From the sequence record PZ229304.1: a DNA stretch of 64,000 bases; one strand, given 5' to 3'. The notes beneath the pieces were generated by a model. That model ran no database searches. It had not been told where the DNA came from and saw only the letters and a program-made list of their open reading frames with translations. The stretch is from a phage. The position numbers and the translations under genes are program-made. Below are positions 7,796 to 56,506 of the stretch, piece by piece. The stretch's first letter is position 1. Each line of letters opens with the position of its first letter.

Positions 7796-7830
7796 GAATG
7801 ATAATGCAAATGATAATTATTCTCATTGAT
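7796..7830. repeat. degenerate tandem of GATAAT-type hexamers (tgaATGATAATgcaAATGATAATTATTCTCATTga)
   Basis: Repeated ATGATAAT units. Confidence 0.3.
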
Positions 7831-8731: not shown

Positions 8732-8732
8732 C

Positions 8733-8948: not shown

Positions 8949-8963
8949 AGAGAGGAAAAGAAG

Positions 8964-9146: not shown

Positions 9147-9157
9147 GGATTTGTGTA

Positions 9158-10122: not shown

Positions 10123-10135
10123 GGAGAATAGTAAA

Positions 10136-10486: not shown

Positions 10487-10697
10487 GTTTAAAACTTTCT
10501 GTGCAATCACTGTTTGTCTTATTCTTGCATACGTGTTATTCTCTGGTATCGTTCGTTTAGGTGAATATATGGCAAGAGAAGCTCGTGAAAGTGAAGCTAA
10601 AAAAGAACAGTGTATTGTGTTCAAGCATCAAAGAGATGCTGAAAAGTTTCTCGCACTTGATTGCAATCGTTATGTATCTTATCAAATGTATGAGTAA
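10479..10697 (+). CDS. hypothetical membrane-anchored protein
   Basis: Start moved to ATG 10479 after GGAGGAA; N-terminal hydrophobic helix. Confidence 0.4.
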   Translation: MVKFKTFCAITVCLILAYVLFSGIVRLGEYMAREARESEAKKEQCIVFKHQRDAEKFLALDCNRYVSYQMYE

Positions 10698-20104: not shown

Positions 20105-20917
20105 TTACTTAGTCAAATGATCTTCTATCATTTTTATGAAAGCAGGATTGCTAAAAGCATCTGCTGCCTTTTCTCTATAAACAAAGACTCCTCTATCTTC
20201 GTAAAGAAGAGTTTCTTCGTAATTAATTCCTGGGTTAACAACAATCATTTTTGTACCCATAGTAAGTGCAGGGAATAATTCCCAATTAAAATTGATAACT
20301 TGGTTTGAACATCCTACTACAACAACCAAATCTTGCATGGTCAAAGTATCAAACAAGTGAGCCATATCTGCATACAAAGGTGCAGCCTCACCAAAAAATA
20401 CAACATTAGGCTTCACCCAGTTATAATCATCTATGTTTATACTATTGTAACCAATGTCTACCAGTGTTTTGTAATCTCCAGGATGCATACGGTAAACTAC
20501 TTCAGGAAGATATCCGTGCACGTGAATAACAGAATCCCTGTCTACACCTGCTCGCTCTAGTAGGTCATCAACGTTTGTTGTCAAGTTTACTACTTGGTTA
20601 GGATATTCCTTAAACCACTTTGCTATTTGAATATGTGCAGCATTAGGTTGTACATCTTTAAGCTCAACACGTCTTTTGTTATAAAATTCGTGTGTTTTGG
20701 CATACAAATCCATACCGTTTTCGTCTACACCACCAACCACTGGAAGATCTGGTGATGTTCTCACACGATAACCTGCTTGGAAAGCTCCAATATCGCAGAT
20801 CTCTTCTAAATCCCATTCTTCCCATAGGGCACGACCACTATCTGTGTCTGTTCGGAATGTTCGAATCCCACTGTCTGCACTTAAACCAGCTCCACTAACA
20901 AAAATTACTCTTCGCAT
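20105..20917 (-). CDS. Sir2-family (sirtuin-like) NAD-dependent enzyme, lacking the zinc-ribbon module
   Basis: GAGLSADSGIRTFR NAD-binding motif, TTNVDDL, catalytic HVHG, VVFFGE; no CxxC pairs. Confidence 0.7.
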   Translation of the reverse strand: MRRVIFVSGAGLSADSGIRTFRTDTDSGRALWEEWDLEEICDIGAFQAGYRVRTSPDLPVVGGVDENGMDLYAKTHEFYNKRRVELKDVQPNAAHIQIAKWFKEYPNQVVNLTTNVDDLLERAGVDRDSVIHVHGYLPEVVYRMHPGDYKTLVDIGYNSINIDDYNWVKPNVVFFGEAAPLYADMAHLFDTLTMQDLVVVVGCSNQVINFNWELFPALTMGTKMIVVNPGINYEETLLYEDRGVFVYREKAADAFSNPAFIKMIEDHLTK

Positions 20918-22245: not shown

Positions 22246-23235
22246 CTATTCCTCCATACATTTAAGAATATGTGCAATGACAGGTATAGTCCAACCGTTA
22301 CCTAACATCTTATATGCTTGTGTGTTACTACTCAGCTTAAAGTAGTCATCTGGCACACCTTGCAAGCGACAACACTCTTTAACCGTTAACTTTCTATAAT
22401 GTACGCCTTCACTCAATTTTTCAAAAGCATCTAGATATCTTCCAGGTGGAATGTAGGCTAATAGTACGTCTTTAGGCACAGTCGTGAGGCAACGAGTTTT
22501 TTCACTGTCCTGAACTTCCAAACAATGTACCAAACGATCAGTTTTAGATGTACTACGTTTGCCATTTTCATTAATTCTACGCCCATATATTGCTGCCGGA
22601 TAAAAAACCAGTTGTCTGCGACTCTTTTCAAAATACTGTTCTATATTACCACCTTTGGCATAATTTGCATCTATGCAATAAGCCTTATCTCTGTCTACAA
22701 TACTATCATCTTCAATGATATCTTGCAACACTTCATTGGTGATCTCCCAGGGTTTTATTTCCCAGTTGCACCAGTATAAACGTTGTCTATTCTGTGCCGT
22801 GAAATCTGCGGAGTTAATGAATACGGGATCAACACCTAAGTAACTTGTGATCACGTTTTCCCACTCCACTTTCATCTTAACGTTTTCAAGCATGAACTTA
22901 ACATTAGGATTAAACTTTTTAATATGTTCAAGAATTTCAACATATTCGAAGAATAGCTTAGATCGCGGATCTTGAAAGTTCAAACCCTTACCAGAAGAAG
23001 AGAAGCCTTGACACGGACTACCACCTAACAAAAGATCAATTTCTCCCCACGGGATATCCCATTCTCTCCATTTTGTAACATCACCTAACTGAATAATATC
23101 TGGAAAATTTGCTTGGCTTTCAGCTATGGCAAATTTGTCTAATTCTGAAGCATAATATGTATCTACTTCAATACCTGCACTTTTTAGCGCAAGCATTCCT
23201 CCTGACATACCATCAAAAAGACTTAAAACTTTCAT
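22246..23235 (-). CDS. dcm: DNA (cytosine-5)-methyltransferase
   Basis: Motif I FDGMSGG, motif IV GSPCQGFS, motif VI FMLENV, motif VIII QNRQR. Confidence 0.8.
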   Translation of the reverse strand: MKVLSLFDGMSGGMLALKSAGIEVDTYYASELDKFAIAESQANFPDIIQLGDVTKWREWDIPWGEIDLLLGGSPCQGFSSSGKGLNFQDPRSKLFFEYVEILEHIKKFNPNVKFMLENVKMKVEWENVITSYLGVDPVFINSADFTAQNRQRLYWCNWEIKPWEITNEVLQDIIEDDSIVDRDKAYCIDANYAKGGNIEQYFEKSRRQLVFYPAAIYGRRINENGKRSTSKTDRLVHCLEVQDSEKTRCLTTVPKDVLLAYIPPGRYLDAFEKLSEGVHYRKLTVKECCRLQGVPDDYFKLSSNTQAYKMLGNGWTIPVIAHILKCMEE

Positions 23236-41121: not shown

Positions 41122-42093
41122 TCACCATTTTGTATGATTAGTCAAAAGTTGACGATGTTGAATCCAACCACAGAAGTTTCCACTCCACAAACGATGTTTA
41201 CGATCCATATGTGTAATACCTTCCTCCCAAGAAGAAGGGAACGGAGGCATATTAATACCATCTTTCTGTTGTTTTAATCCTGACAGATCCATTTCTTTCA
41301 TTGGCGTTGCCTGGTGTTCAAACGGAGATGCATGTACCTTTTGTCCAGACAGCAAACGAGAATAGATATCCAATGCTTTATCTTTAGTATCATTCAATTT
41401 ACGATAACTTACCTGAGCGCAACAAGAAGCTGAAATAGCTTTTGCTTCCTCTTCTGTCAACATTTTCTCGTTGGAGAAGGTTTCACCCAAGAAATAACGG
41501 ATCATACCAGTTTCTGGATCTCGATCACGATTAACGTAAGGTGTATGCCATTCCCCTGGGAAAAGAAGATATGGTTCAGAAGATTCATACAGTTTTTTAA
41601 TTTCTTTAGCAAGAGCCTCAATAGTAGGATCTGCATCAGCATCCACGCGCAACCACAAGAAGTTTTCTAGCTCTGTAGTTGTTACTACAGTCTTCATACG
41701 TTGGAATGGTTCTAGTAGGCGGTTTGCAACCTGTTTATGATAACCAGCAAGGGCAAACTCTTCTGCAAAACGTGCAGCACTTAGCGCAGCTAAGTCCCAC
41801 CATTCTTTTGCAGTGTAACCTGCATCAATCAGGGCATCGTGATCTGTGCCTTTATCTTGCATACCTGGTTGGTTAGCACCAAAACGATAAGGACGTGCTG
41901 GAGATTGCCGTACCATTTCAATTAGAGTTTTAACAGGAATAGCTCGACTTGATGCGGCATTACGAGAAAACAAACGATGCGTCATCAATTCAGAGTGAAT
42001 GATTCGGGGATATTCAAGTTCAAAGGTAACAATATCTTTACCTTCAGATGTTTGAGAGTGTGCAATAATTTTTGCTGAAATAGAATTTGTCAT
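41122..42093 (-). CDS. thyX: ThyX-like flavin-dependent thymidylate synthase homolog (divergent signature)
   Basis: THRLFSRNAASSRA resembles the ThyX RHRxxSxxxxSxRY signature with substitutions; sits next to tk and nrd genes. Confidence 0.5.
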   Translation of the reverse strand: MTNSISAKIIAHSQTSEGKDIVTFELEYPRIIHSELMTHRLFSRNAASSRAIPVKTLIEMVRQSPARPYRFGANQPGMQDKGTDHDALIDAGYTAKEWWDLAALSAARFAEEFALAGYHKQVANRLLEPFQRMKTVVTTTELENFLWLRVDADADPTIEALAKEIKKLYESSEPYLLFPGEWHTPYVNRDRDPETGMIRYFLGETFSNEKMLTEEEAKAISASCCAQVSYRKLNDTKDKALDIYSRLLSGQKVHASPFEHQATPMKEMDLSGLKQQKDGINMPPFPSSWEEGITHMDRKHRLWSGNFCGWIQHRQLLTNHTKW

Positions 42094-42102
42094 TATTTCT
42101 CC

Positions 42103-42693
42103 TTAAGGTAGTAAAATACTTTCAATTTCTTCCCACTGATTATCTAAACCAGTGATAATTACATTAGGAAGTTTCTTTAACTCTTCCAAGTATGGATCTT
42201 CGTAAATAGTGTTGAAATATATTTTCAACGTTTCATCTGGAAATAGGACAAGATTTTCAGCCCTATCGTCAATAGTTACGTCGCAAGGTAATAAGTATTT
42301 TTCTTTTGTTGCGAAAAAACCATTACCAGATGTTCTACTAAAATCCACTTTATCTAAAGATCGTGTTACGTGTCTATATTTAGAACTAAGGTGTCCACCC
42401 TTAGTGTGGCTCGCTATAGATATATTAGCTCCATTTGCAATTATACGATGAACAACATCTGTACTATTAGGTACTACTCCCATAGTATCATATAGATGTT
42501 GGTTATCCCAAAAAGAGTAAGGATCTACACCAAATTGCTTTTTAAAATCAGGGAAATATTTCGTAATATCGTAGTGCACAGTTTTATGTGTCTTATCAAA
42601 TTTGATATTAGATCTACTTACCGCATTTAACCAATTTAACCATTCTATATCTGCTGGAGCTATTACTAAATCCCAATCACATACTAGACGCAT
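42103..42693 (-). CDS. HAD-family 5-prime nucleotidase-like protein
   Basis: Start moved to MRLVCDWDLV (DxD motif I); later DDRAENL; overlaps tk stop. Confidence 0.4.
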   Translation of the reverse strand: MRLVCDWDLVIAPADIEWLNWLNAVSRSNIKFDKTHKTVHYDITKYFPDFKKQFGVDPYSFWDNQHLYDTMGVVPNSTDVVHRIIANGANISIASHTKGGHLSSKYRHVTRSLDKVDFSRTSGNGFFATKEKYLLPCDVTIDDRAENLVLFPDETLKIYFNTIYEDPYLEELKKLPNVIITGLDNQWEEIESILLP

Positions 42694-43240
42694 TATTTCT
42701 CCTGTTATAACATTTTCTACACATTGTTTCGTAAATGTCTTCTCCTCCAATAACAATCTGTTCTTTAGAGTCGATAAGTCTAGCATTGAAAATAGCTTTT
42801 CTTCCACATTTACAAATGCTTTTCAATTCTGTAATTGAATCTGCTATGGCTAATAACCGTTCAGAACCTTCAAACAATTCTGTAGCAAAATCTGTTTTAA
42901 GTCCATAGCAGAATACAGGAATATCGTAATTGTCTACCACATCTCCAAGAATGTCAACCATATCTTTAGTTAGGAATTGTGATTCATCCACAAATACTGC
43001 ATCTACTGGATTTTCTTTAAGCTGTGTATAAATTTCCAGCATATCTTCTTTTGTTTTAACTGGTTTTGCTTCCTCTTTAATACCTATCCTAGAAGCAATA
43101 GCACAACCAGATCTGGTATCTAAAGCCGAAGTTAAAAGAAGAACTTTCATATTTCTTTCTTTATAGTTCCAAGCTGTTTGTAAAAGATGTGTGCTTTTAC
43201 CACTGTTCATTGGACTATATCGGAAATAAAGTTTAGCCAT
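42677..43240 (-). CDS. tdk: thymidine kinase
   Basis: P-loop MNSGKST, about 190 aa, C-terminal zinc-binding CxxC pairs typical of TK. Confidence 0.85.
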   Translation of the reverse strand: MAKLYFRYSPMNSGKSTHLLQTAWNYKERNMKVLLLTSALDTRSGCAIASRIGIKEEAKPVKTKEDMLEIYTQLKENPVDAVFVDESQFLTKDMVDILGDVVDNYDIPVFCYGLKTDFATELFEGSERLLAIADSITELKSICKCGRKAIFNARLIDSKEQIVIGGEDIYETMCRKCYNRRNNASSM

Positions 43241-43285
43241 ATTTTCTCCTCTAACGCTCCCGTTTGTGGGAGCGATAATACTTTA

Positions 43286-43861
43286 TTATTTCTCTTCGTC
43301 AAGAAGAATTTTTACTATCTGTTTTCTTCGCTTAGTTATTGTACTTTCTGGTGAAATTCCGCGCTTCGTTAGCCAATTTTTATCCTTTTTAGACTGGCAT
43401 AAAGCTATCGCTTCTTTCTCCGCTTTTGCTTCCCTGAATGTCATATCGTGCTTGTCAGCATAAGCCAGGATAGCGTTACACTTCTTACAAACTACACGCA
43501 GGTCGTCTTCTGTTACATACAATAGGCGTAAAACAAAACTTGGGATATCTTCATAACAGGTTAATGTACCTGCTGCATTAATATGGTCTACTTGAAAGTC
43601 TTTCATACCTCCTGTATGTCCACACAATTCACATTTACAATTCCAAACCTGTTTCGGTTTGCCTATTTTCTTATCTAAAACTACATTGCCATCTTTATCC
43701 AACCTATCGGCTTTAAATCGTACAGATTGGATCTTTTTTATCTTATTCGGGTGTCTCACCCATGCTTTCCTTAAGCAACCCCTTAAATATGTATAAAAGG
43801 CTGCTTGAGTTTTCCAAGGTGTTCCATCTCCCCAAATAACTTTAGGTTCTTTATTTTCCAA
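43286..43861 (-). CDS. HNH endonuclease-like protein
   Basis: CELCGH...HINAAG...CKKCN HNH-like motif. Confidence 0.5.
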   Translation of the reverse strand: MENKEPKVIWGDGTPWKTQAAFYTYLRGCLRKAWVRHPNKIKKIQSVRFKADRLDKDGNVVLDKKIGKPKQVWNCKCELCGHTGGMKDFQVDHINAAGTLTCYEDIPSFVLRLLYVTEDDLRVVCKKCNAILAYADKHDMTFREAKAEKEAIALCQSKKDKNWLTKRGISPESTITKRRKQIVKILLDEEK

Positions 43862-44045
43862 TAGTGCTCACCTTTTTAGCTACATAATCTCCAGGTGGAA
43901 TGTTATATTTAAAGAAAAGCATACGGTCTAAACCAGCTTTACACATATTTTCTGGGATTGTGATTGTATATAGGAGTTTATCTCCGCGTTTATTGTATAT
44001 TTTATATACTTCACCCTCTCCGTATTGTTTACCGTGAGAAGCCAT
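43851..44045 (-). CDS. hypothetical protein
   Basis: ORF track. Confidence 0.4.
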   Translation of the reverse strand: MASHGKQYGEGEVYKIYNKRGDKLLYTITIPENMCKAGLDRMLFFKYNIPPGDYVAKKVSTIGK

Positions 44046-44430
44046 CTACACTCTCCTTCAATTGTTCAATAGCATCTGCTGCTTCAATATACTTACCTTT
44101 ATACATTGCTTTTAAAGCCTTACGAACAAGATCATCGTCTGTATATAAATCAATTAGTTGATTAGCTAACTCAATTTTTACAGGATTTTTTAAGTTAGGG
44201 TAGGCTTCATACAACATATTGTAATACTTATCACTCAATTCTTTTTCAATATGAATAACGTGAATCGCTTTGTTTAGGTTGATCACACGATCACCTTTGT
44301 TTCGACAAGCATACTTAGCTAACTTAGTGAAACAAGGAGTTGCACCAATTAGATATGCAAGTTCCAAAGGTTGCATACGCATACGTTTGTAGTGATCACC
44401 ATCAATTTGAATATCCAGTGCTGTAGTCAT
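44029..44430 (-). CDS. hypothetical protein
   Basis: ORF track. Confidence 0.5.
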   Translation of the reverse strand: MTTALDIQIDGDHYKRMRMQPLELAYLIGATPCFTKLAKYACRNKGDRVINLNKAIHVIHIEKELSDKYYNMLYEAYPNLKNPVKIELANQLIDLYTDDDLVRKALKAMYKGKYIEAADAIEQLKESVDGFSR

Positions 44431-44448
44431 AAATCCTCCAAAAATAAA

Positions 44449-44462
44449 GGGGCTTTCGCCCC
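44449..44462 (-). terminator. hairpin GGGGC-tttc-GCCCC (repeated terminator cassette, copy 3)
   Basis: Third identical copy with flanking A/T runs. Confidence 0.55.
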
Positions 44463-44468
44463 TTTTTA

Positions 44469-45431
44469 TTAAATTCCAATAACAGTGTTTACACGCTTCT
44501 CTTTGCTACGCAAATTAACACGTCCACGAGACAGGCTATTACATGATGTGCATCTTAGCACTTGGAATGTACTAACCGCTGTTGTGTAAACCTTACCAGG
44601 AACAACTTCAAGGTGCTCTTTACCGCAACGAGGACAACGAAGTTTTTCATCGTCATAGAATGCAGATACGTTAGGATGTTGTGGAATCCACGCACGAAGT
44701 TTGATGTAAAGATCTCTAAGAGAAACAACATCACCATCATTGTATGTTTGCATACGGAAGAAGGCATGTCTGTCTCCTTCACAACATGCTTTCCACAAAG
44801 GAAAACCTTCATTATCAAGTTTAAAGTTTTCTGTATCAAAATACAAACACATTTCTTTAAGCGCATTAGAAGGTAGTGCAAACTGCTTCTTAGCTGCCTT
44901 GAGTGTATCAATTACAACATAATGTGATGGTGGCTCCATACCGTGAAAAGCAAAACGTTGGTTAATATAAGCCTTATCAAACTTAATACCATTGTGCGCG
45001 ATCACAATATCTGCATCGTCAAGTAAGTGCCAGAGATCTTGACATAATTCCCAATCATCTGTATGATCTATGTCAAACAAAGGGTAATTGCTAAGGTTCT
45101 TACCTTCTACTTCCCCTGTTTCTAAATCAGCAGATGAATAGGAAAGCAAGTAACCTCGACGAATAACTTGTTCAGGTGCAATAAAGGCTTTGAAACGTGA
45201 GAAGCTATACACAATCTCCGGTGCTGTCTCTACGTCAATAATTTTAATTACTGGCCCACCTTTATCTTGTGGAGCACCGCGATGCGGTGAATTTACACGA
45301 GCTAAGTAATCATTTACTGTGCTCTTCTTAGTAGAACTTCCCAACACCTCTTGTGCAATCTTACGCGAAGAATAACCTTGTGCTTTCATAGATACAATCA
45401 AGGCTTTCTGTTCGTCTGTTAATTTACTCAA
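44469..45431 (-). CDS. DEDDh-type 3-5 exonuclease (DnaQ-like) with N-terminal HTH and C-terminal zinc ribbon
   Basis: Exo I IDVET, Exo II HNGIKFD, Exo III H-x4-D; N-terminal sigma-region-4-like HTH; C-terminal CPRCG...CTSCN. Confidence 0.6.
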   Translation of the reverse strand: MSKLTDEQKALIVSMKAQGYSSRKIAQEVLGSSTKKSTVNDYLARVNSPHRGAPQDKGGPVIKIIDVETAPEIVYSFSRFKAFIAPEQVIRRGYLLSYSSADLETGEVEGKNLSNYPLFDIDHTDDWELCQDLWHLLDDADIVIAHNGIKFDKAYINQRFAFHGMEPPSHYVVIDTLKAAKKQFALPSNALKEMCLYFDTENFKLDNEGFPLWKACCEGDRHAFFRMQTYNDGDVVSLRDLYIKLRAWIPQHPNVSAFYDDEKLRCPRCGKEHLEVVPGKVYTTAVSTFQVLRCTSCNSLSRGRVNLRSKEKRVNTVIGI

Positions 45432-46462
45432 TGTTCCTCCTGCTCTGAAATATATGCTTGTAGCATACTTTCAAAAGTTGTTTCATCATTCGCCCAACGT
45501 TTCATATATACCAACTGAAAAATTGTCTCTATCCATTCGTCAGTTGTCATTTCTACTTCTTCACCATCCCAAGAAGTAAATTTAACGCCATCTGGGAACC
45601 ATTCATAATACTGATCTTTAACGGTCTGAAAAAGTTCAGCTTGTGTTTTACATTTGGAAATAAGATTAAAGCAAGTAATATCTCCAAACTTAACATCGAA
45701 ATCTTGGTAAGGTCGAATACTATCTGTCTTATCGCCCATTAGCATTTGATAAGCTAACCAGTAACTACCCCAGCCCTTAATTTCTTTTTTCTTACCTTTT
45801 TCTACGATCCAGATATCACCGATAGATTCATCAATCAGAATAATACAAGGATTTTTATAAACACCATCCTCTTTATAAAAGTTAAAGAGTAAACTTGGTG
45901 TGTGTAAGCTATCTTTGTCGATAGATGCTACAATATGAGAAAACTTGCCAGTTTCCTTGTAGGCTTTATACCCTGCATATCCATAGATTTCTAAAGCATC
46001 ATCTGCCTCAATACCAGTAACAACGTCACCGTTATGTTTTTCAACTAGATAATCTTTAGTATCTGATAAATGGATTGGTCTTAAATCTGATCGTTCTGAT
46101 TTATATTCTTTTGGCATTTTGAAAGAATGCCGGAAGGTTTTTCCTACCCCGATGACACCGCAATACTTTTGAAGTTTTAGGTGATCCATCATCTGGGTTA
46201 TTTTTGTCTTTGCAGCTTGAAACGTAAAAGAAATATTATCTGGGACTATTTGAACATCTTTTATTTCAAAATCTTCTCTAGAGAACAACTTCTTACCAGC
46301 AGCTTCGCGTTGCGCGTTAAGTGCTCCTAACCATCCTCCAATATTTTTTGAAGATTTACCCCAAAAATCTGTTCTTGTTTCAAACTCTTTTACATTACCG
46401 GAAGCCTTATGTACAGCGTGGATTTTTCTTTGTTCTAAAGCTGAAGACGCCTGGAACGCCAC
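45428..46462 (-). CDS. FEN-type 5-3 exonuclease / RNase H-like nuclease (T4 rnh-like)
   Basis: GIEADDALE and IDKDS resemble the acidic-cluster motifs of T4 RNase H/FEN. Confidence 0.45.
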   Translation of the reverse strand: MAFQASSALEQRKIHAVHKASGNVKEFETRTDFWGKSSKNIGGWLGALNAQREAAGKKLFSREDFEIKDVQIVPDNISFTFQAAKTKITQMMDHLKLQKYCGVIGVGKTFRHSFKMPKEYKSERSDLRPIHLSDTKDYLVEKHNGDVVTGIEADDALEIYGYAGYKAYKETGKFSHIVASIDKDSLHTPSLLFNFYKEDGVYKNPCIILIDESIGDIWIVEKGKKKEIKGWGSYWLAYQMLMGDKTDSIRPYQDFDVKFGDITCFNLISKCKTQAELFQTVKDQYYEWFPDGVKFTSWDGEEVEMTTDEWIETIFQLVYMKRWANDETTFESMLQAYISEQEEH

Positions 46463-46554
46463 TTGATCGTAGTCTATTGCAAGAATTGTGTTCTCGTCAA
46501 CATATTTGTGCAGGTCTTCCGGTTGGATTAAAATGTAACCGCTAATATTACCTC

Positions 46555-46767
46555 CTATTCATCATCTGAACTCTCTGTTGAGAATGTTCGTGTGTAGGGA
46601 CACTGACGACTTGCAGAAACCTCTATAACCTTGTCGTACATACCGTTAGAGTAAAAACAGTATTTTGTACTTCCAGAAACTTGTTCTCCAGAATTAATTA
46701 AAGTTATTTGACCAGCATAAGAATAAGAACTGATTACTAAAAGTAAACCGACAAGAAGTTTTTTCAT
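46555..46767 (-). CDS. hypothetical secreted small protein (signal peptide)
   Basis: MKKLLVGLLLVISSYSYAG N-terminus. Confidence 0.45.
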   Translation of the reverse strand: MKKLLVGLLLVISSYSYAGQITLINSGEQVSGSTKYCFYSNGMYDKVIEVSASRQCPYTRTFSTESSDDE

Positions 46768-46841
46768 GGTGTGTCTCCTTAAAAGCCCACCTAACTAAGT
46801 AGGTAGGCATATTAACACATATTAAATTAGTAAGTCAAGTA

Positions 46842-47726
46842 TTATTTTTGAATAGTTGACTTGATAAGGTCTTGCATAATACCACGGATTTCGTTAAAGC
46901 ACAGAAGGACAGATGCTTCAAAAGATCCTTCTTCATCATTAAAGTATTTAGGGAATTTAATACCACTCAACTTAAATTCTTTATCAACAATAAAGTTAAC
47001 GAAACCGTCATATTCCAGGCCAATGGCAACAACGCGCTTACCATCTTCCATAAGTTCTACTGCACGAGATTCATAAAGGGATTCTTTACTCCATACAACC
47101 ACACCTTCCGAATCTTCAAGTTTAATATAATTACCAAGGGTCAGTCGTTCAGCCTCATGTTCTTCTAAGATGGTATCAAAACCTTTAATAATGGCTTCTT
47201 CGTGTACACTAAACGGCAGGACTGGGAAAGTACCCAACACCTCACGAAGAAACACAGCAATATCTTCACTAATTTTCTTAGTACCATTAAGAACATAGGT
47301 AATACTGTTTTCAGTGTCTACAACAACATAGTTATAGAAATCATCTGCCTCTGTTTCTGGAAGCAGAGAAAACACAATATCAGCCTCAATTGCTTTTTTA
47401 CTTTCTTTGTCCAAGAAGAACTCTTTAGTAGGATTTGCAGCAATAAACTCTTGTTCCATCTCCTGGAGTTTTTCATTAAGAATGCGTTTAACTTTCTTCT
47501 TATTAACTTTCTTAACAGACTGCCCTACTTTAATAACCTCTAAACCAGAGAACACTTTTACATAGGAACCATCATCTTCAAAACGAACAAGACCAATGGT
47601 ATGTGCTTGTTGCCCCTGTGCCACAACAAAATCCAGCGGTTTGTCTGTTACTGTGTTCAGTGCTGAAATAGACAGACCATCACCAGAAATCAGGGTTACG
47701 CAAGATTTGAAATTTTTAGCAAACAT
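46842..47726 (-). CDS. hypothetical protein
   Basis: Start moved to ATG with GAGGAG RBS. Confidence 0.5.
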   Translation of the reverse strand: MFAKNFKSCVTLISGDGLSISALNTVTDKPLDFVVAQGQQAHTIGLVRFEDDGSYVKVFSGLEVIKVGQSVKKVNKKKVKRILNEKLQEMEQEFIAANPTKEFFLDKESKKAIEADIVFSLLPETEADDFYNYVVVDTENSITYVLNGTKKISEDIAVFLREVLGTFPVLPFSVHEEAIIKGFDTILEEHEAERLTLGNYIKLEDSEGVVVWSKESLYESRAVELMEDGKRVVAIGLEYDGFVNFIVDKEFKLSGIKFPKYFNDEEGSFEASVLLCFNEIRGIMQDLIKSTIQK

Positions 47727-47736
47727 AGTTTTCTCC

Positions 47737-48015
47737 TCAAATAACAACTACAAAATATTTTACACCATCATATTCGACAATATGATCAGGATATTTAAAT
47801 CCTTTATAAGATTTACCAAACAGACTAACAGCTTCATTAGCTTTGTTTTGCGGATTACTCAACCACTGTTCTTCTGTGTAAAACTTAAATTCTGTTCTCT
47901 TACCTTCTTTTTCTAAACCAACAATTTCCTGTGTGATATCTTCAATACCTGCATTCTTCAAGGATTTGATTACCTGACGCAAACCGTGTTTAAAGATATC
48001 TTCTGCTGTTAACAT
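47737..48015 (-). CDS. hypothetical protein
   Basis: ORF track. Confidence 0.45.
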   Translation of the reverse strand: MLTAEDIFKHGLRQVIKSLKNAGIEDITQEIVGLEKEGKRTEFKFYTEEQWLSNPQNKANEAVSLFGKSYKGFKYPDHIVEYDGVKYFVVVI

Positions 48016-48027
48016 AATACCTCCAAT

Positions 48028-48046
48028 AAGCCCCCGAAGGGGCTTT
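48028..48046 (-). terminator. hairpin AAGCCCC-cgaa-GGGGCTT
   Basis: GC stem, flanking T-run. Confidence 0.5.
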
Positions 48047-48051
48047 ATTTC

Positions 48052-48774
48052 TTAAGCAATGATTGCTGCGATATTAGGTTTAACAAAGGTAGATGGTTTC
48101 ATAATTTTACCTTTGTCATCAAAGAATACGTACACCTTTTGAACTTCGTTATATACAGCATGTACCCCAGTATAAGAACCTTCTGCACGATCTTTGCTTC
48201 GCATCTCGATAGCATCACACTCTTTTTCAAGAGCTTCAATAATATCCTTAGTTTCCCAAATAGCCAGAAGTTGCTTCTTAGTAGGATACTTGGACTCATT
48301 GCTATTCAACACTTCACGCATAACCTTCTTCTCGTTATAAACAGAACGCACCAAAGTATCTCGTGCCATACGTGTAAGTGTAAGAGACATTAAGGCAAAT
48401 TGCAAGTCATTTTCTACCATTTTATCAAATTCAATGATAACATCGTAAATGTTTTCTGCCAGAACATCGCCTGTCGGCATTTCCAGAGCTTTATCAACAC
48501 CTTCTTTACCAAAGAACATAAATGCCAGATAGGATGCTACCACAAAAATATCTGCTGCTGCATCAAGTAATTCAACGTGATCATTTTCCTGTGCTGCTGC
48601 TTGAAACTCTTTAAGTTCTTCTCGTACAAAAGAAAGTTGAGCTTCAAACATCTCTTGAGTAAATTCTGGAGTTACTCCACCGCGTGCCTTAGCATTCCAA
48701 GCAACAATTTGATCGGCAGCTTTGATAAAGAAGCTATTGTCCACTTTTACTTGTTTGAAAAAATTCTCGATCAT
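48052..48774 (-). CDS. MazG-like nucleoside triphosphate pyrophosphohydrolase domain protein
   Basis: REELKEF...LLDAAADIFVV helix pair resembling MazG/dUTPase-like all-alpha NTP-PPase. Confidence 0.4.
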   Translation of the reverse strand: MIENFFKQVKVDNSFFIKAADQIVAWNAKARGGVTPEFTQEMFEAQLSFVREELKEFQAAAQENDHVELLDAAADIFVVASYLAFMFFGKEGVDKALEMPTGDVLAENIYDVIIEFDKMVENDLQFALMSLTLTRMARDTLVRSVYNEKKVMREVLNSNESKYPTKKQLLAIWETKDIIEALEKECDAIEMRSKDRAEGSYTGVHAVYNEVQKVYVFFDDKGKIMKPSTFVKPNIAAIIA

Positions 48775-48783
48775 TGTTTCTCC

Positions 48784-48963
48784 TTATTTAAAATATTGTT
48801 CTAACAAAACACTAATGCGAACTACCGATTCGCCCATATACGCCCCAGCACAGAGGAAAACAACAAATCTACAAAAATTGCAGTACCATTTGTCCACTGG
48901 AAACGAGGCTAACATTATAATTGCAATAGCAATTAACATCATAAGAACTGTTACTAATACCAT
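48784..48963 (-). CDS. hypothetical small membrane protein
   Basis: Start moved to MVLVTV; two hydrophobic segments. Confidence 0.35.
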   Translation of the reverse strand: MVLVTVLMMLIAIAIIMLASFPVDKWYCNFCRFVVFLCAGAYMGESVVRISVLLEQYFK

Positions 48964-48971
48964 ATTACCTC

Positions 48972-50087
48972 TTACTCTGCTGGTTCCCAAGTACCTGGAA
49001 TCATCTTACGTACACGTACCCCAACAGGCTTGGTAGGAATACCTTCGTCTGAAAATTCTTCGTACTCTATTTCAACAAATTGACCAATAAGTGTCAAAGC
49101 ATTTTCTTCTTTACGATAGTTAATGGTTTCATCTGAATCCTTACGCATCAGGAATTCGACTACTTTACCATTTTCCATCTCACCTGTCAATACCCCGTCA
49201 CCATTTTTATCACGTTTTGCACTTACCACTTTAACTTCAAGCGTCTGCCGTGGTTTACGTTTAATAACATCATAAGAACGTTTATCAAACTCATAAACAC
49301 CTTGTGCATTACGATACACAACACCTTCCGCTTTCTCACGCAGAGCTTTTGCATAGAATTCATCAAACTGCTCTTGGTTTTCAATGTACTCTGTATGTAC
49401 TACACAAATAAGTTCATCTAAACCTTTATCTTCAACAACGTCTTTCAGAGCAGCCAAAACTTCAACCCTCTTCTCAAATGGTACAGATGGCACAGGAACA
49501 TCATATACATAGTATTTAAGAAGCGGAGTGTTAGAATTATGCTTTTTCCACGCACTATTAATTTGTTGAAGGCTAAGTACACCCAAACCAGCAAAAACTT
49601 CACCATCAAGAGGATGACCAACTACTTCTTTAATGAAGGTTGGAATTTCTTTCCAGTGAGGTGGAAGTTTATATACTTCACCAGCTTTAGATAAGCATTC
49701 ACCTTGCATGTTAATCATTGAACGTAGGCCATTCAATTTATACTGTGCATAACCTGGGAACAAAACACGATCAGCATAATCTTTATAATCCTGACATTTC
49801 ATGGGTGTGGAAGGAACATGGTTTTCAGCTTCCTCTTTTGTTTTATAATACCCATTCTTAAGTTGTTTTGTCCATTTGGCAAGAGCTTCTATTTCAGCTT
49901 GTTCTTCTGCTGTTGTTTCATTTGAGCGACCAATATTTTTAGGTTCTGCTGTATAAGATTTGCTAGTAATCTTCCCACCTAATTGACCATGAGCAACAGT
50001 TACAACACTACCTTCGGTATAGACTGACCACTGTTTAATTTTACCTGTAGAAGTTTTACCATACAATGTAGGATTAGTTTGTTTCAT
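48972..50087 (-). CDS. ATP-dependent DNA ligase
   Basis: Nucleotidyltransferase motifs KLNGLR (motif I), LDGEV, EGVVYR, KRKPRQ; C-terminal OB-like region; start moved to MKQTNP with GGAGG RBS. Confidence 0.65.
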   Translation of the reverse strand: MKQTNPTLYGKTSTGKIKQWSVYTEGSVVTVAHGQLGGKITSKSYTAEPKNIGRSNETTAEEQAEIEALAKWTKQLKNGYYKTKEEAENHVPSTPMKCQDYKDYADRVLFPGYAQYKLNGLRSMINMQGECLSKAGEVYKLPPHWKEIPTFIKEVVGHPLDGEVFAGLGVLSLQQINSAWKKHNSNTPLLKYYVYDVPVPSVPFEKRVEVLAALKDVVEDKGLDELICVVHTEYIENQEQFDEFYAKALREKAEGVVYRNAQGVYEFDKRSYDVIKRKPRQTLEVKVVSAKRDKNGDGVLTGEMENGKVVEFLMRKDSDETINYRKEENALTLIGQFVEIEYEEFSDEGIPTKPVGVRVRKMIPGTWEPAE

Positions 50088-50277
50088 CTTTAACCTCCAG
50101 TTGCGAAAGAACCCATTTAGCCATTTCAATCTCACCGTGTAGTCTGCCTAGTTCATAGGCATCATCAATATTACCACCAGTGTAATCATCCACCATAAAG
50201 TAAGGATCTTCGCTACTGTTAGGTGCGTTTGCAATTCTCGTTAGTTCTTCAATAAATGTCATAGTTACCCTTACCAA
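50074..50277 (-). CDS. hypothetical protein
   Basis: ORF track. Confidence 0.4.
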   Translation of the reverse strand: MVRVTMTFIEELTRIANAPNSSEDPYFMVDDYTGGNIDDAYELGRLHGEIEMAKWVLSQLEVKDETN

Positions 50278-50495
50278 TTATACACAAGAGTTTGAATCTC
50301 TTCCATCAAATCTTCAAGATCTGTATCAACGTATTCAGAAGATGTTGCCATAAAGTATGTAATCATTGTGAACCCTTCCGAAGAAAGAGCATCAAGGATA
50401 TCATTAAACATATCTTCCATTTCAGTATTCTCACCAAACGAGAATAACATTTGTTGATCTTCGCTTACACCTTTAACATAGATAGCTGTGCTCAT
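50271..50495 (-). CDS. hypothetical acidic protein
   Basis: ORF track. Confidence 0.4.
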   Translation of the reverse strand: MSTAIYVKGVSEDQQMLFSFGENTEMEDMFNDILDALSSEGFTMITYFMATSSEYVDTDLEDLMEEIQTLVYNW

Positions 50496-50498
50496 ATA

Positions 50499-50819
50499 TT
50501 AATCCTTAAGACGTTCATTTAAATCTGCAATAACATCATTTAAATCTTCACATTCCAGTGTTAACTCTGAAACTTGTTCATTCAAACAAGAAACTTCTTC
50601 ATTTAGATCTGAAATAATGTTTTCTAATGAATCTACTTGGTCATCATATGAACGTTTTGTTTCTTCAAGTTCTTCCGTAAGATCATTAATCAAACGGAGC
50701 AAAGATAAGATATAGCCGTCTCCTGTCTCGTTCCTCCACTCACTTCCATAGCGATAAATAATAATTTCACCATTATCGACTACTGTAAAATACTTACCTT
50801 CACCAGAATAAATTTCCAT
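50499..50819 (-). CDS. hypothetical coiled-coil protein
   Basis: Heptad-like LxxxLxE repeats. Confidence 0.45.
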   Translation of the reverse strand: MEIYSGEGKYFTVVDNGEIIIYRYGSEWRNETGDGYILSLLRLINDLTEELEETKRSYDDQVDSLENIISDLNEEVSCLNEQVSELTLECEDLNDVIADLNERLKD

Positions 50820-50828
50820 ACACTCTCC

Positions 50829-51233
50829 TTATTGTAGTTTAAGTGAACTGCGAAGACGTTTTTCTTGCTGATCACGAATATGTTGTGGAACCTCATGAAT
50901 TGAGTCGTTACCGTGCCTATTTTCAACTACTAAAGAGATAACTTGATAACCAAACTCTTCAGCAAGAGTTAAATAAGGTTTAAGTTCTTTCTCTGTGGTT
51001 GAAGTGTTAGAGACAATAATCTTTTTAATATTAGATGCCATAGCATCACGAACAATACTCTGACACCATGCGTGTGCTTTACCTACATTCTCTGGCTTCC
51101 AATCGTAAACACCACTTTCTGTGTAATGATATTGATCTGCCTCACAGATAGGCCAATAACCTTCAGAAATAATTTCTGCTACTGTAGATTTACCTGCACC
51201 TGAAACACCACGTAAGATGATAAGTTGTTTCAT
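50829..51233 (-). CDS. P-loop kinase, polynucleotide-kinase-like (resembles the kinase domain of T4 Pnk)
   Basis: Walker A GVSGAGKST; IIVSNTSTT parallels the T4 Pnk VIISDTNLN segment; coupled to RNA ligase gene. Confidence 0.55.
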   Translation of the reverse strand: MKQLIILRGVSGAGKSTVAEIISEGYWPICEADQYHYTESGVYDWKPENVGKAHAWCQSIVRDAMASNIKKIIVSNTSTTEKELKPYLTLAEEFGYQVISLVVENRHGNDSIHEVPQHIRDQQEKRLRSSLKLQ

Positions 51234-52166
51234 TTAGCCTCCAAAGAAGTTTTCTATTTCTTTACGTCGCTCTTGTGGATCTAAAGCAGCCCATTGAGTC
51301 TTAGTAAAGTTGTTTCGAAGCCATTCTAGCAAAGTATAATATTCTTCGTCAACAATTTGTTTAGCATTGTTTGGGTTGTCCCAAATCATATCCCACTTCT
51401 TATTGCCACCACGCATAAGGAATTTTTTAGCAAGATAGTATGGTGACTTAATTTTTAACAGTAAGTTAAACGGGTAGTTTGTTTCACGAACAACAAACCC
51501 TTCGTGTTTACAATGTTTAGACATTTCAACAACATCTGAAAATTTAATCATCGGATAAACTTCAGGACGTTTAAATTTTGTAATAGATGCAATCCCATCA
51601 AGAACACCTTCAGGTAACATGAAACTTGTCCCATCAAGATTTTGAATTCTTGCTCCAATTAAGTATGCGCCTGGTTCTTCTTCGACAATATGTGGATCAG
51701 AAGGATCACAGATTTCAAAAAGAAAAGTTGCTTTTGCACTTTCTGTCCACTTAATGAAATACTCTATGTCGTCACACTCGGAAACAATACGGTTCTTTGC
51801 CATAATTGCGAAATCTGATTCTAGGCTCCCTGTTGTTGATACAACAAGTTTCCCTTTGTACACACCTACAGATGCCATAAAACCGTTTACTTTACGGACA
51901 GCATCTACAATTTCGTCTGCTGGAAGATCTGTACCATTTTCAAAACGATTAAAGATTTTAGTAAAAGGCCAAATAACAACATTGTCTTCTGAGTCAACAA
52001 CCAACCCACGACAATCTAAAAGTCGTTTGTCAACGTTCCACAAGTTATCCCAGAATACATTGTTTTTGTATTTAAGTACAGCAAGACCAGCATACTCTCC
52101 AGATTTAACTTCTTTTTTATGAACTAAACCTTTTGCAATCAGGTCATCACAATTGAACTTAGCCAC
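51234..52166 (-). CDS. RNA ligase (covalent nucleotidyltransferase superfamily)
   Basis: Motif I KVNGFM, motif IV EGFVVR, motif V LLKIK. Confidence 0.65.
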   Translation of the reverse strand: MAKFNCDDLIAKGLVHKKEVKSGEYAGLAVLKYKNNVFWDNLWNVDKRLLDCRGLVVDSEDNVVIWPFTKIFNRFENGTDLPADEIVDAVRKVNGFMASVGVYKGKLVVSTTGSLESDFAIMAKNRIVSECDDIEYFIKWTESAKATFLFEICDPSDPHIVEEEPGAYLIGARIQNLDGTSFMLPEGVLDGIASITKFKRPEVYPMIKFSDVVEMSKHCKHEGFVVRETNYPFNLLLKIKSPYYLAKKFLMRGGNKKWDMIWDNPNNAKQIVDEEYYTLLEWLRNNFTKTQWAALDPQERRKEIENFFGG

Positions 52167-52167
52167 C

Positions 52168-52719
52168 TTAATCTCCTTTGATTATCTTATGATGATCTAC
52201 AACAATAATATCACGCTTATCCATAATAGAGATGATTTCGTCAAAATGCAAGATTTTCCCGTGTGCATCCCAACCAACATCCAACATTTTCCCATACAAA
52301 TGATCAGGGAATGATCCGTGAGAGTGTCCGTGTAGCATGATTGATCCATGCCCTTGTTTATTCCAGGCAGCCATAGGGTAATGACTTAAGACGAAGAACA
52401 GCTTCTGATATTTCACTTCGTCATAATACACAACTTCTCCATACTCTGCAAGCACTTTTCTGTGTTTGCTGTAATCATGGTTCCCAACACAGTAAGTAAT
52501 ATCCCCTTGGAGACGGGAAGCAATCTTACGGGTATCTTCTTCAGTCCCGAAACAGAAGTCCCCAAGATGGTACATCTTTACTCCTGGTGTTGTGGCACAT
52601 TTATTCCATGCTTCGATCAGTGCTTCTGTCATATGCTCCATATCTTCCCACGGGCGATATTCAGGAGCAAACTCTCGGATACGTTTGTGCATAAAATGCA
52701 AATCACTTGTAATAAACAT
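52168..52719 (-). CDS. calcineurin-like metallophosphoesterase (candidate RNA 2,3-cyclic / 3-phosphate end-healing phosphatase)
   Basis: SDLHF, HLGDF, GNHD, LHGHSHG metallophosphoesterase motifs; coupled to ligase and kinase. Confidence 0.7.
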   Translation of the reverse strand: MFITSDLHFMHKRIREFAPEYRPWEDMEHMTEALIEAWNKCATTPGVKMYHLGDFCFGTEEDTRKIASRLQGDITYCVGNHDYSKHRKVLAEYGEVVYYDEVKYQKLFFVLSHYPMAAWNKQGHGSIMLHGHSHGSFPDHLYGKMLDVGWDAHGKILHFDEIISIMDKRDIIVVDHHKIIKGD

Positions 52720-53081
52720 TAGTATAATCCCTCGCTGAATAGTTCACTGTTGTGACCATTTCTTTCGTAGTTAATTTGTTTGGCGTTATCTGCAATGATA
52801 TAAGCATCTTTGCGACTCCACCAGTTATAATACTGATCAATAAACCCTTGATTATCAGGTAAGCAAAACAGTTTATCGATCAATCCTGCATCTTTTAAAA
52901 CATTAAGTTGTGCAGATAGTACAGGATTTGCATGCCTAACACAAGGAATAATTAACTCTTCGCCATTGTTAAGAATATACTTATTCGCAGCGCATACTAT
53001 AACACGTTGAGCATAGTAATCCTCACCAATCCAAGTAAGAGGTTGGTAACAAATATCATGTTGATTAGTAGCGCACATCAA
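52719..53081 (-). CDS. hypothetical protein
   Basis: ORF track. Confidence 0.45.
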   Translation of the reverse strand: MMCATNQHDICYQPLTWIGEDYYAQRVIVCAANKYILNNGEELIIPCVRHANPVLSAQLNVLKDAGLIDKLFCLPDNQGFIDQYYNWWSRKDAYIIADNAKQINYERNGHNSELFSEGLY

Positions 53082-53236
53082 TTTTCTCCGTACTCTTTTA
53101 ATCTATCAGCGAAAAAACTGTAATCAGGAAGTAAAAGATCATTACTCATATCGTTACAGTTTTCTTCCTCTTTATAGATAAAACGCCCTTCATCCTCTTC
53201 TTGCTCTGACCAAACTGAGTAATGCATAATACCTAC

Positions 53237-53578
53237 TTAATAGTTAACACGTTTAATTTCAACACCATAGGATGAAATAAAATTTTCCTTAGCTAACATA
53301 TATTTACCAGCAGCAGAAGGATTTGATGTATGAACATAGATAGTTTTAAGAGCATCCCATTCACCCGCGTACAACATACATTCTACGTCTAAGAACGCAT
53401 GATATCCTTCTTGATCTTCTCCAAGATCATTATCGAAGTGTATCTCTGAGATATTATTGAAATTATCTTCATCCGAAACAAAAGATAACCAATCCTCAAA
53501 AGATTTTAACCAAATAGCATCCTCATAACCATAATCTTTAGGATCTCTTAAATCGTCTAACCAAAGAATTTTAGCCAC
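53237..53578 (-). CDS. hypothetical protein
   Basis: ORF track. Confidence 0.45.
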   Translation of the reverse strand: MAKILWLDDLRDPKDYGYEDAIWLKSFEDWLSFVSDEDNFNNISEIHFDNDLGEDQEGYHAFLDVECMLYAGEWDALKTIYVHTSNPSAAGKYMLAKENFISSYGVEIKRVNY

Positions 53579-53772
53579 TATCTACCCCCTTCCTGTTTCT
53601 CTTCTTTCCAAGTTTTACCATTATCTACCAACTTCTTAGAAACAGCAAATCTTTCTCCATTGATATAAAACAAATAAAGAATAAAGGATTTTCCTATAGT
53701 TACAGTATCTGCTACTTCTACACGCTTTACACCTTGCATGTATTTGGCTTTACCTGAATAAATAAGAAACAT
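53578..53772 (-). CDS. hypothetical protein
   Basis: ORF track. Confidence 0.4.
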   Translation of the reverse strand: MFLIYSGKAKYMQGVKRVEVADTVTIGKSFILYLFYINGERFAVSKKLVDNGKTWKEEKQEGGR

Positions 53773-54050
53773 TACTTATTCCTTTTGTTGTTGATCACAT
53801 CTAAAGCTGTGTAAGGTTTGTTTGTACCGCTGTATTCAAGAATAATTGGTACATATTCATAGACCAACTCAAAAGTACCATACACAGAATCTGCAACTGA
53901 AATAAGCATTTCAGTGCCTTCATCGTTCTTAATTAATGAAAACCTTGCCCCTGGTTTATTGAGCACTTCATATTTCTTACCTGCTGTCAGCAAACCTGAA
54001 TACCATTCATTTTGCACAACAGACAAACACTTCAGGTAGGTTTTTCTCAT
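53772..54050 (-). CDS. hypothetical protein
   Basis: ORF track. Confidence 0.45.
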   Translation of the reverse strand: MRKTYLKCLSVVQNEWYSGLLTAGKKYEVLNKPGARFSLIKNDEGTEMLISVADSVYGTFELVYEYVPIILEYSGTNKPYTALDVINNKRNK

Positions 54051-55612: not shown

Positions 55613-56506
55613 ATGAAAGTTAGTATTCTACATGGTGTTGACTGTTATGTTACTGATGTAGACGTTAAAGTCTTTACATTCTCTGGTGGAGAACAGCATG
55701 TTCAACTAGATACGAATCTATCAGGTTTCAATCATGCTACAGACAGAATCTTACTCACTTTAGAAGTAAGATCTGCTAAAGACTTGATGACTTTGGTTAT
55801 GACTAAGAATGCATTGGACAATATGCTATATCATAAACCATATTGTGTTGATTTGCTCATGTTGTATGTGCCGTATGCACGACAAGACAGAGTGTGTGAG
55901 CCTGGGGAAGCATTCGGAGTTAAAGCCTTTGCTTCTATAATTAATTCATTAAATTTCTCACGTGTTATCGTTGCTGATCCACATAGTGATGTTACGCCAG
56001 CAGTGTTTGACAGACTCTGTGTAATACCTCAAGAAGAGATTGCTTACGAAACTTTAAAGTGGAAGTTACGTATGGAGAATTTTGCTCTTGTTAGTCCTGA
56101 TGGTGGTGCTCTTAAGAAAATATTTAAATTATCTAAGAAAATGTCTTTAGATGTGTTCTGTGCAGAGAAGGTTAGAGATACTGCAACAGGTGCTATTGTT
56201 CGTACAGACATTTCTGTACAGGATTTCAATAAGCGTAACCTGATGATCGTAGATGATATCTGTGATGGTGGTAGAACTTTTATCGAATTGGCTAAAGTGC
56301 TACGTGCTCGTAACGCAGGTAAGATTGAGTTATATGTTACACACGGTATCTTTTCTAAAGGTCTTAAAGAGTTAAGTGAGCACTTTGACTGCATTCATTC
56401 TCTTAATGTGTGGGAAGATAACATCCAAGAAGATTCCGGTGTTCTTGTTAAGAATCAGCCAGATTTGCAACAACAAATTGTATCTCCATACGTGTGGAAT
56501 TTTTAA
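55613..56506 (+). CDS. adps: ribose-phosphate pyrophosphokinase (PRPP synthetase)-like enzyme; candidate ADP-ribose pyrophosphate synthetase (Adps) of NARP1
   Basis: Prs-family motifs PYARQDR, VSPDGGALKK, MIVDDICDGGRTF; directly upstream of Nampt-like gene. Confidence 0.7.
   Translation: MKVSILHGVDCYVTDVDVKVFTFSGGEQHVQLDTNLSGFNHATDRILLTLEVRSAKDLMTLVMTKNALDNMLYHKPYCVDLLMLYVPYARQDRVCEPGEAFGVKAFASIINSLNFSRVIVADPHSDVTPAVFDRLCVIPQEEIAYETLKWKLRMENFALVSPDGGALKKIFKLSKKMSLDVFCAEKVRDTATGAIVRTDISVQDFNKRNLMIVDDICDGGRTFIELAKVLRARNAGKIELYVTHGIFSKGLKELSEHFDCIHSLNVWEDNIQEDSGVLVKNQPDLQQQIVSPYVWNF

Follow-up and report, generated by a model that had tools for sequence, protein, structure and literature searches.

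Three adjacent genes in a phage DNA stretch of 64,000 nucleotides (nt; sequence record PZ229304.1), referred to here in its entirety as the window, probably form an RNA end-healing-and-sealing module, with which a phi92-like coliphage would mend transfer RNAs (tRNAs) cut by host nucleases. The genes are read leftward, on the minus strand, and encode a metallophosphoesterase (MPE; 183 aa; 52168-52719), an RNA ligase (310 aa, with a GTG start; 51234-52166) and a P-loop kinase (134 aa; 50829-51233), as delineated by the listing of open reading frames (ORFs) and by matches to phrog_547, PF09511 and AAA_33, respectively. An earlier note, made from the letters alone, had placed a tightly packed repair cassette at 50829-52719; the positions and the tight junctions were confirmed, and the healing-and-sealing interpretation is supported by the sequence comparisons and structural models described below.

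By nucleotide identity, the window derives from a phi92-like myophage (Justusliebigvirus, Stephanstirmvirinae): near-identical phi92-like phages match it at 97-99% identity and, across 48000-54000, Escherichia phage vB_Eco_J-01 is 99.0% identical and phi92 97.8%, with at least 80% of this interval covered in 56 phage records. The phi92 counterparts of MPE, ligase and kinase are gp097, gp096 and gp095, for which RefSeq gives the names 'phosphoesterase', a locus name only, and 'ATPase', respectively; the record of the BASEL phage JohannJBalmer labels the trio 'putative phosphoesterase', 'RNA ligase' and 'polynucleotide kinase'.

From the family and fold assignments, the intact catalytic motifs, the conserved gene linkage and the domain fusions, we infer the following substrates, order of reactions and counter-defence purpose. 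Host ribotoxins, for example anticodon nucleases, would cleave tRNA, producing ends that bear 2',3'-cyclic phosphate and 5'-OH groups; the 134-aa Pnk-type kinase would then phosphorylate the 5'-OH, MPE, as an enzyme of the Mn/Ni type, would open and remove the cyclic or 3'-phosphate, and the Rnl1-type ligase would reseal the break via a lysyl-AMP intermediate at K92. In the phi92-like lineage, a cyclic-phosphate-processing Receiver-like protein (cREC), encoded nearby, may help with the cyclic phosphate, and the 16 tRNA genes of the phage could provide a parallel escape from the same attack.

Families and catalytic motifs of the three proteins

The ligase is predicted to be an ATP-dependent RNA ligase of the Rnl1 clade, albeit with a shorter, helical C-terminal region. 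At 54 bits, it scores above the threshold of the Pfam family PF09511 (RNA_lig_T4_1), which is 28.3, and it matches phrog_562 with 7e-69. Across 29 homologs at 50-85% identity, the signature residues are invariant: K92-x-N94-G95 of motif I (K92-V-N94-G95 in the phage), F150-E151-I152 of motif III, E222-G223 of motif IV and K238-x-K240 of motif V, together with S110-T111-T112-G113. The strings KVNGFM, EGFVVR and LLKIK, from which a nucleotidyltransferase-family RNA ligase had been proposed, are all present in the translation, and that assignment is borne out by the Pfam match, the family profile, the predicted fold and the invariant motifs. No matches were returned when the Protein Data Bank (PDB) was searched with the single ligase sequence; the family profile was required, and it retrieved T4 Rnl1 as its sole match (1.9e-9), with the motifs aligning residue by residue to K99, G102, E159, E227-G228, K240 and K242 of the T4 enzyme. 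The AlphaFold2 (AF2) model of the ligase has a predicted local distance difference test (pLDDT) score of 92, and its helical C-terminal region, of ~70 aa, is shorter than that of T4 Rnl1. A Foldseek search with this model placed T4 Rnl1 first (E 2e-13; template modelling (TM) score 0.64-0.68), followed by fungal Trl1 ligase domains (TM ~0.6), and then by Rnl3, Rnl2 and Rnl5. The best fold matches, T4 Rnl1 and the fungal tRNA ligase, are both sealers of tRNA breaks. A further PHROG label on this protein, 'T4 gp63 tail fibre attachment', is a T4-specific annotation that has been transferred, and it is unsupported here.

The 134-aa protein appears to be a minimal Pnk-type kinase domain with no fused phosphatase, and is predicted to act as a 5'-OH polynucleotide kinase. 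Its score for PF13671 (AAA_33), 39.8 bits (6.9e-10), exceeds the cutoff of 27, and phrog_2071 is matched with 9e-58. Its P-loop, GVSGAGKST (G9-VSGAG-K15-S16), contains the invariant residues G12, G14 and K15; also invariant are D33, N76-T77, R106-H107 and H113, and the first of these aligns with D35, the general base of T4 Pnk. With the single sequence, the PDB search gave only marginal matches to Pnk entries (E 0.24-0.83; T4 Pnk 0.24), whereas the best matches of the kinase profile were Capnocytophaga Pnkp1 (1e-6), the Mucorales Trl1 kinase, T4 Pnk (1.5e-5) and the kinase domain of Clostridium thermocellum Pnkp (CthPnkp). The AF2 model (pLDDT 91) gives the same picture: the 21 highest Foldseek matches all belong to T4 Pnk or to the CthPnkp kinase (TM 0.73-0.80), and gluconokinase and adenylate kinase rank lower (TM 0.53-0.58). 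The resemblance to the T4 Pnk kinase domain, which the earlier note had proposed, is therefore seen in both the profile and the fold comparisons.

MPE is matched by phrog_547 ('phosphoesterase') with 8.5e-55; the match to Pfam Metallophos_2 reaches only 20.6 bits, which is under the cutoff of 27. Nevertheless, the complete set of dinuclear metal-site motifs (DxH, GD, GNH[DE], H and GHxH) is kept, and the residues D6, H8, G53-D54, G79-N80-H81, H113, G131-H132 and H134 are invariant in an alignment of 36 sequences. These include the GNHD and HGHSHG strings on which the proposal of a calcineurin-like phosphoesterase had been founded. The only PDB match of the MPE profile is entry 1xm7, Aquifex aq_1665 (1.3e-6 with the single MPE sequence and 3.6e-22 with the profile), and MPE is assigned on this basis to the aq_1665 family, rather than to the GDxxDRG type represented by Pnkp and lambda-phosphatase. 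Consequently, the comparison with bacterial Pnkp-type systems, which the earlier note had made for the separate phosphatase, is valid for the MPE superfamily, but not for the family. Cyclic-phosphate chemistry is plausible for an aq_1665-type enzyme by analogy, because another branch of the superfamily, that of Pnkp and lambda-phosphatase, has documented 2',3'-cyclic phosphodiesterase activity (PMC2190708); MPE would then be the healer of 2',3'-cyclic-phosphate or 3'-phosphate ends.

Gene linkage in viruses and fusions in bacteria

The three genes are translationally coupled on the minus strand. The stop codon of the preceding ORF overlaps the start of MPE (TAATG), a single base separates the TAA of MPE from the GTG of the ligase (TAA-G-GTG), and the TAA of the ligase directly abuts the ATG of the kinase (TAAATG); Shine-Dalgarno-like sequences lie within the 3' end of every preceding gene. 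This packing is not specific to MPE, ligase and kinase, because the whole leftward block, at ~20-55 kb, is equally dense throughout, and packing alone is thus weak evidence for their coupling. Moreover, a scan for promoters and terminators found matches no better than those in shuffled controls and, therefore, operon boundaries cannot be drawn.

The strongest evidence for a functional link within the trio is provided by conserved synteny and by domain fusions. We scanned IMG/VR with the ligase alignment, which gave 70 ligase loci, at 30-97% identity, in which partners were sought within 8 kb; loci with full flanks numbered 41 when seeded with the ligase, 56 with MPE and 47 with the kinase, and 230 viral loci were sampled overall. 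MPE was found at 67 of the 70 ligase loci, and the kinase at 65. Where the flanks are complete, MPE is present at every ligase locus (41/41), and all three genes occur together in 40. The ligase is the middle gene in 61 of 63 complete trios, with the order MPE-ligase-kinase in 33 and kinase-ligase-MPE in 28; the gap to the ligase is at most 100 nt for the kinase in 38 of these trios, and for MPE in 30.

The same families recur in bacteria, in arrangements that tie kinase, MPE and ligase together. In Cardiobacteriaceae chromosomes, a kinase-ligase fusion of ~495 aa is followed by an MPE gene of the aq_1665 type, which belongs to the family of the phage protein (hidden Markov model (HMM) match 2.8e-47); at one such locus (L234, 5446-7576; the others being L242, L254 and L263), the pair is flanked by ordinary chromosomal genes, namely mscS-like, rpiB and eamA. 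In Leptolyngbyaceae, all three activities are predicted within single AAA_33-Metallophos-RNA_lig_T4_1 proteins of ~730 aa, in which the MPE domain lies between the kinase and the ligase; these tri-domain proteins are encoded on the chromosome at L236 (4708-6906), L253 and ~25 further loci. The architecture is Pnkp-like, but the ligase domain is of the Rnl1 type and shares 31-35% identity with that of the phage; hhalign relates the phage kinase profile to the kinase domain of these proteins with 96.5% probability. The MPE domain, in contrast, is of a different family from the phage MPE (hhalign probability 32%, over 43 columns). No Hen1 gene was found among the scanned neighbours of L236.

A number of observations weigh against the repair module as proposed. 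For MPE, no Pnkp or lambda-phosphatase entry was found at E<=1 in the PDB search with its profile, and our search for functional literature on aq_1665, a structural-genomics protein, found none; no substrate is known for this uncharacterized family. With respect to the ligase, the profile alignment to T4 Rnl1 stops at residue 236, leaving unmatched the long C-terminal domain (~255-374) that serves the tRNA specificity of the T4 enzyme. Additionally, T112 occupies the position aligned with K119, an essential residue, of T4 Rnl1. In the kinase, R38 of T4 Pnk, which holds the terminal nucleotide by its phosphate, is replaced by a nearly invariant His36, and the invariant R106 pairs with R122 of T4 Pnk rather than with its lid arginine, R126, four positions further on, albeit in a loop where the alignment is uncertain. 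More generally, no measured activity for MPE, ligase, kinase or their close homologs was found in the literature searched. The linkage is also looser in the reverse direction, the ligase being present in only 30 of the 56 MPE-seeded and 22 of the 47 kinase-seeded loci with full flanks. Lastly, two viral loci, L074 (IMGVR_UViG_3300014004_000001) and L078, keep cREC and MPE, whereas ligase and kinase are absent from the locus. At the former (7145-9237), the homolog of phi92 gp098 is retained too, and the ligase-kinase pair is replaced by an ORF of 112 aa (8558-8896) that contains the motif HEAIH. Phages in nature can therefore dispense with the pair, and MPE can work without it; among related phages, ligase and kinase constitute a natural presence/absence polymorphism.

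Four loci with the kinase only were sampled for alternative ligases, too few to generalize from: at one of them, a gene for an HD-domain protein adjoins the kinase, and at the other three the neighbouring genes are unrelated. In the former (L165, 7995-8941), the kinase homolog is ~47% identical to the phage protein and the HD-domain protein follows directly, with no Rnl1-type ligase found within 8 kb; this arrangement resembles the kinase-HD phosphatase architecture reported for Pnk from Rhodothermus phage RM378.

Neighbouring genes and alternative pathways

Although synteny and the bacterial fusions uphold the three-gene cassette that the earlier note had described, the neighbourhood proves to be larger. 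The cREC gene (53237-53578, minus strand; 113 aa) lies two genes upstream of MPE, and its product matches PF20274 (54.3 bits; cutoff 27). The FDNDLG and VH-x-SNP strings are invariant, as is K92; WLDD is conserved, and the Rec-like acidic pocket is kept. It is probably a fourth member of the cassette in the phi92-like lineage. A MazG-like nucleotide pyrophosphohydrolase is encoded at 48052-48774, also on the minus strand (PF01503, 3.2e-7; phrog_671), and its gene accompanies the ligase in 13 of the 70 loci; thus, ligase, cREC, kinase, MazG and MPE all fall inside 48052-53578 on one strand. Immediately preceding MPE is the gp098 homolog (52719-53081, minus strand; 120 aa; phrog_839, 3.9e-47), the stop codon of which overlaps the MPE start. 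It has no Pfam or NCBIfam match, it was found with the ligase at only 3 of the 70 loci, and its membership of the cassette is doubtful. The NCBIfam search gave nothing useful for any of the five proteins to which it was applied.

A sirtuin (SIR2) gene is present at 20105-20917 on the minus strand (tblastn 2.6e-100; PF02146, 2.8e-22), at the far end of the leftward block and ~30 kb from the cassette. Pfam and PHROG scans of the ORFs at 41-55 kb found no sirtuin beside the cassette, and it was tblastn that located the distant one, which is 55% identical to the sirtuin of rV5/PVP-SE1-like phages. In the loci of the latter, cREC is positioned between ligase and kinase, and the sirtuin comes directly after the kinase, as in the rV5-like locus L005, where it occupies 9724-10500; in the window, the corresponding position is taken by small ORFs without assigned function. 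The sirtuin is possibly a remote accessory of the cassette. Close to it is a gene for a C-5 cytosine DNA methylase (22246-23235, minus strand).

Just past the leftward block, and ahead of the tRNA array, is a pair of NAD+ salvage genes on the plus strand: one with PRPP-synthetase-type domains (55613-56506; ribose-phosphate pyrophosphokinase in phi92) and one of the NAPRTase family (56578-58311; nicotinamide phosphoribosyltransferase in phi92). They fit either replenishment of NAD+ by the phage, or an NAD+-dependent step in RNA repair.

This wider neighbourhood has been described by Iyer et al. 2022 (Viruses 14:1977, section 3.7.3; PMC9503650), with Escherichia phage V5 as the prototype (rV5/Mydo-type). 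The families listed are a T4-like tRNA ligase, cREC, a small 'nucleotide kinase', MazG, an 'occasional' calcineurin-like phosphoesterase and a sirtuin, for which a role in RNA repair, with NAD+-dependent clean-up of cyclic phosphate ends, was proposed (PMC9503650). The ligase, cREC, kinase, MazG and phosphoesterase families are all present in the window. L005 has the published arrangement, MPE-x-x-ligase-cREC-kinase-SIR2-DNA ligase-MazG; in the window, on the other hand, cREC is upstream of MPE, such that ligase and kinase abut, and the sirtuin is remote. An earlier paper defined cREC, proposed the role that is followed here for it, reported its operonic links to RNA ligases, and noted that the 3' end is in some cases handled by calcineurin-like phosphatases (Iyer et al. 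2021; PMC7824862).

The Iyer/Aravind model (PMC9503650) implies a different assignment of roles, in which ligase and kinase repair RNA through a yeast-like pathway, and MPE is not the 3' healer. Here, opening of the cyclic phosphate by cREC would yield a 2'-phosphate; once the Rnl1/Trl1-like ligase had rejoined the ends, the sirtuin would use NAD+ to strip this phosphate from the junction. MPE would be engaged elsewhere, for example in the breakdown of by-products in the form of ADP-ribose cyclic phosphate, or of cyclic nucleotides that act as immune signals. The presence of cREC, its placement at rV5-like loci with the ligase on one side and the kinase on the other, the sirtuin that follows the kinase there and has a counterpart in the window, and the NAD salvage genes flanking the block all speak for this pathway, as does the fold match of the ligase to Trl1, which almost equals that to T4 Rnl1. 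Moreover, MPE persists at L074 and L078 where ligase and kinase are absent, and 26 of the 56 MPE-seeded loci with full flanks have no ligase. We nonetheless consider such a division of labour unlikely, for it is MPE, rather than cREC or the sirtuin, that is the near-constant partner of the ligase: cREC occurs at 10 and the sirtuin at 11 of the 70 ligase loci (the latter at 16 of the 230 viral loci overall), compared with 67 for MPE, and both are confined to the rV5/phi92 lineage. The sirtuin of the window is, furthermore, 30 kb distant; in Cardiobacteriaceae, the kinase-ligase fusion is followed by MPE, with no cREC homolog detected at the locus and no sirtuin among the neighbours scanned; and the bacterial tri-domain proteins hold an MPE domain between kinase and ligase.

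A gene for an ATP-dependent DNA ligase (48972-50135) lies near the cassette and, further along the minus strand, the interval 41122-47747 encodes a ThyX-like protein, an NT5C-like nucleotidase, thymidine kinase, an HNH endonuclease, an RNase H-fold exonuclease subunit, a phrog_107 exonuclease and RdgC.

It is conceivable, but in our view highly improbable, that kinase and MPE instead heal DNA ends bearing 5'-OH and 3'-phosphate groups, on behalf of the adjacent DNA ligase and the recombination genes, the RNA-ligase-like protein having a function related to DNA or to RNA primers. T4 Pnk acts on DNA ends too, and the T4 Pnk and CthPnkp kinase entries matched in the PDB include complexes with single-stranded DNA; the cassette sits inside a DNA-metabolism block (DNA ligase, RdgC, exonuclease, thymidine kinase and ThyX-like protein), and a DNA ligase homolog is found within 8 kb at 29 of the 70 ligase loci. 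However, the conserved partner is the Rnl1-type ligase (40/41 loci with full flanks, and fused to the kinase in bacteria) and not a DNA ligase, and the nearest relatives of this protein in sequence and fold are tRNA ligases, with DNA ligases scoring far lower.

The large tRNA array that had been noticed alongside the cassette comprises 16 genes at 59058-62200 on the plus strand, three of them with a CAT anticodon, and others for Lys-UUU, Tyr, Asn, Gln and Thr. As the array is only 6 kb away, and no host nuclease target was identified from the data here, the module might mature or quality-control the RNAs of the phage itself, such as these tRNAs, rather than counter host nucleases. This we regard as the least probable of the readings: all 16 genes returned by the standard tRNA scan are complete, with neither introns nor split genes flagged, and the closest homolog, T4 Rnl1, acting with Pnk, has to our knowledge only one characterized function, which is to reverse the damage inflicted by PrrC.

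Relation to known repair systems and implications

The proposed module shares with T4 Pnkp (PseT) and Rnl1 (gp63) the chemistry that is needed, the Rnl1 ligase family and the kinase fold, including the P-loop and the general-base Asp. It differs in that the kinase stands alone, at 134 aa, in that the candidate phosphatase is a separate MPE, and in the length of the ligase (310 aa, compared with 374 aa for T4 Rnl1). The phosphatase of T4 Pnkp is a HAD/DxDxT domain fused to the kinase (PMC3592404), and the contrast with T4 that the earlier note had drawn is correct.

The bacterial Pnkp-Hen1 system of C. thermocellum combines the same expected activities (kinase, dinuclear MPE and nucleotidyltransferase ligase), and its kinase is the top fold match of the phage protein. 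CthPnkp is, however, a single polypeptide, whereas the phage has three ORFs with separate start and stop codons; the phage MPE is of the aq_1665 type; and the scan of neighbouring genes revealed nothing resembling Hen1, with no methyltransferase domain in the ORFs examined at 48-55 kb and the C-5 DNA methylase at 22246-23235 as the only methylase seen. Structures of the CthPnkp ligase domain were found neither in the search with the ligase profile, nor among the 50 best fold matches listed. The Capnocytophaga Pnkp1-Rnl-Hen1 complex (PDB code: 4xrp) is more similar in layout, since the activities are distributed over separate polypeptides, and its Pnkp1 kinase is the best match of the kinase profile; the ligase and MPE profiles, by contrast, find no match in 4xrp, and the phage system has no Hen1. 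Among phages, a putative polynucleotide 5'-kinase lacking a 3'-phosphatase domain, and adjoining an RNA ligase, was reported in 2025 for Pseudomonas phage Adele (Pakpunavirus), where tRNA repair was proposed (PMC12846349). No phosphatase is named there, whereas the cassette described here has MPE as a conserved third partner.

Much of this will not surprise a specialist: the neighbourhood has already been described computationally, and the GenBank records of near-identical phages partly carry the same annotations. What is new beyond the literature is modest, namely, the near-constancy of MPE, which occurs with the ligase in 67 of the 70 sampled loci and was previously termed 'occasional' (PMC9503650), the order with the ligase in the middle, and the bacterial fusions. 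Experimental literature on the trio, on the aq_1665 family and on phage RNA-repair counter-defence beyond T4 was also sought, and nothing relevant was found.

With rather less confidence than we place in the repair role itself, we tentatively suggest that an aq_1665-type MPE, a mini-Pnk and a short Rnl1 could be the core of a widespread three-protein RNA repair system, encoded by phages and fused or adjacent in bacteria, onto which the rV5/phi92 lineage may have layered cREC and the sirtuin to give an NAD+-dependent, yeast-like pathway that proceeds via a 2'-phosphate junction.

Defences that cut tRNA are common, and include PrrC, RloC, PARIS, retron-associated nucleases, HEPN proteins (ApeA) and Schlafens; the T4 Pnkp/Rnl1 pathway is still the sole phage repair pathway with tests behind it. 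The cassette would represent a second repair architecture, and one that is apparently widespread. Two questions become testable, given that close relatives are available in easily handled Escherichia coli phages (such as phi92 and the BASEL phage JohannJBalmer): whether repair with a stand-alone MPE protects phages against nucleases of this kind, and what role the aq_1665 MPE family plays. If the proposal is correct, RNA 2',3'-cyclic phosphodiesterase / 3'-phosphatase activity would be the first biochemical function for the aq_1665 MPE family.

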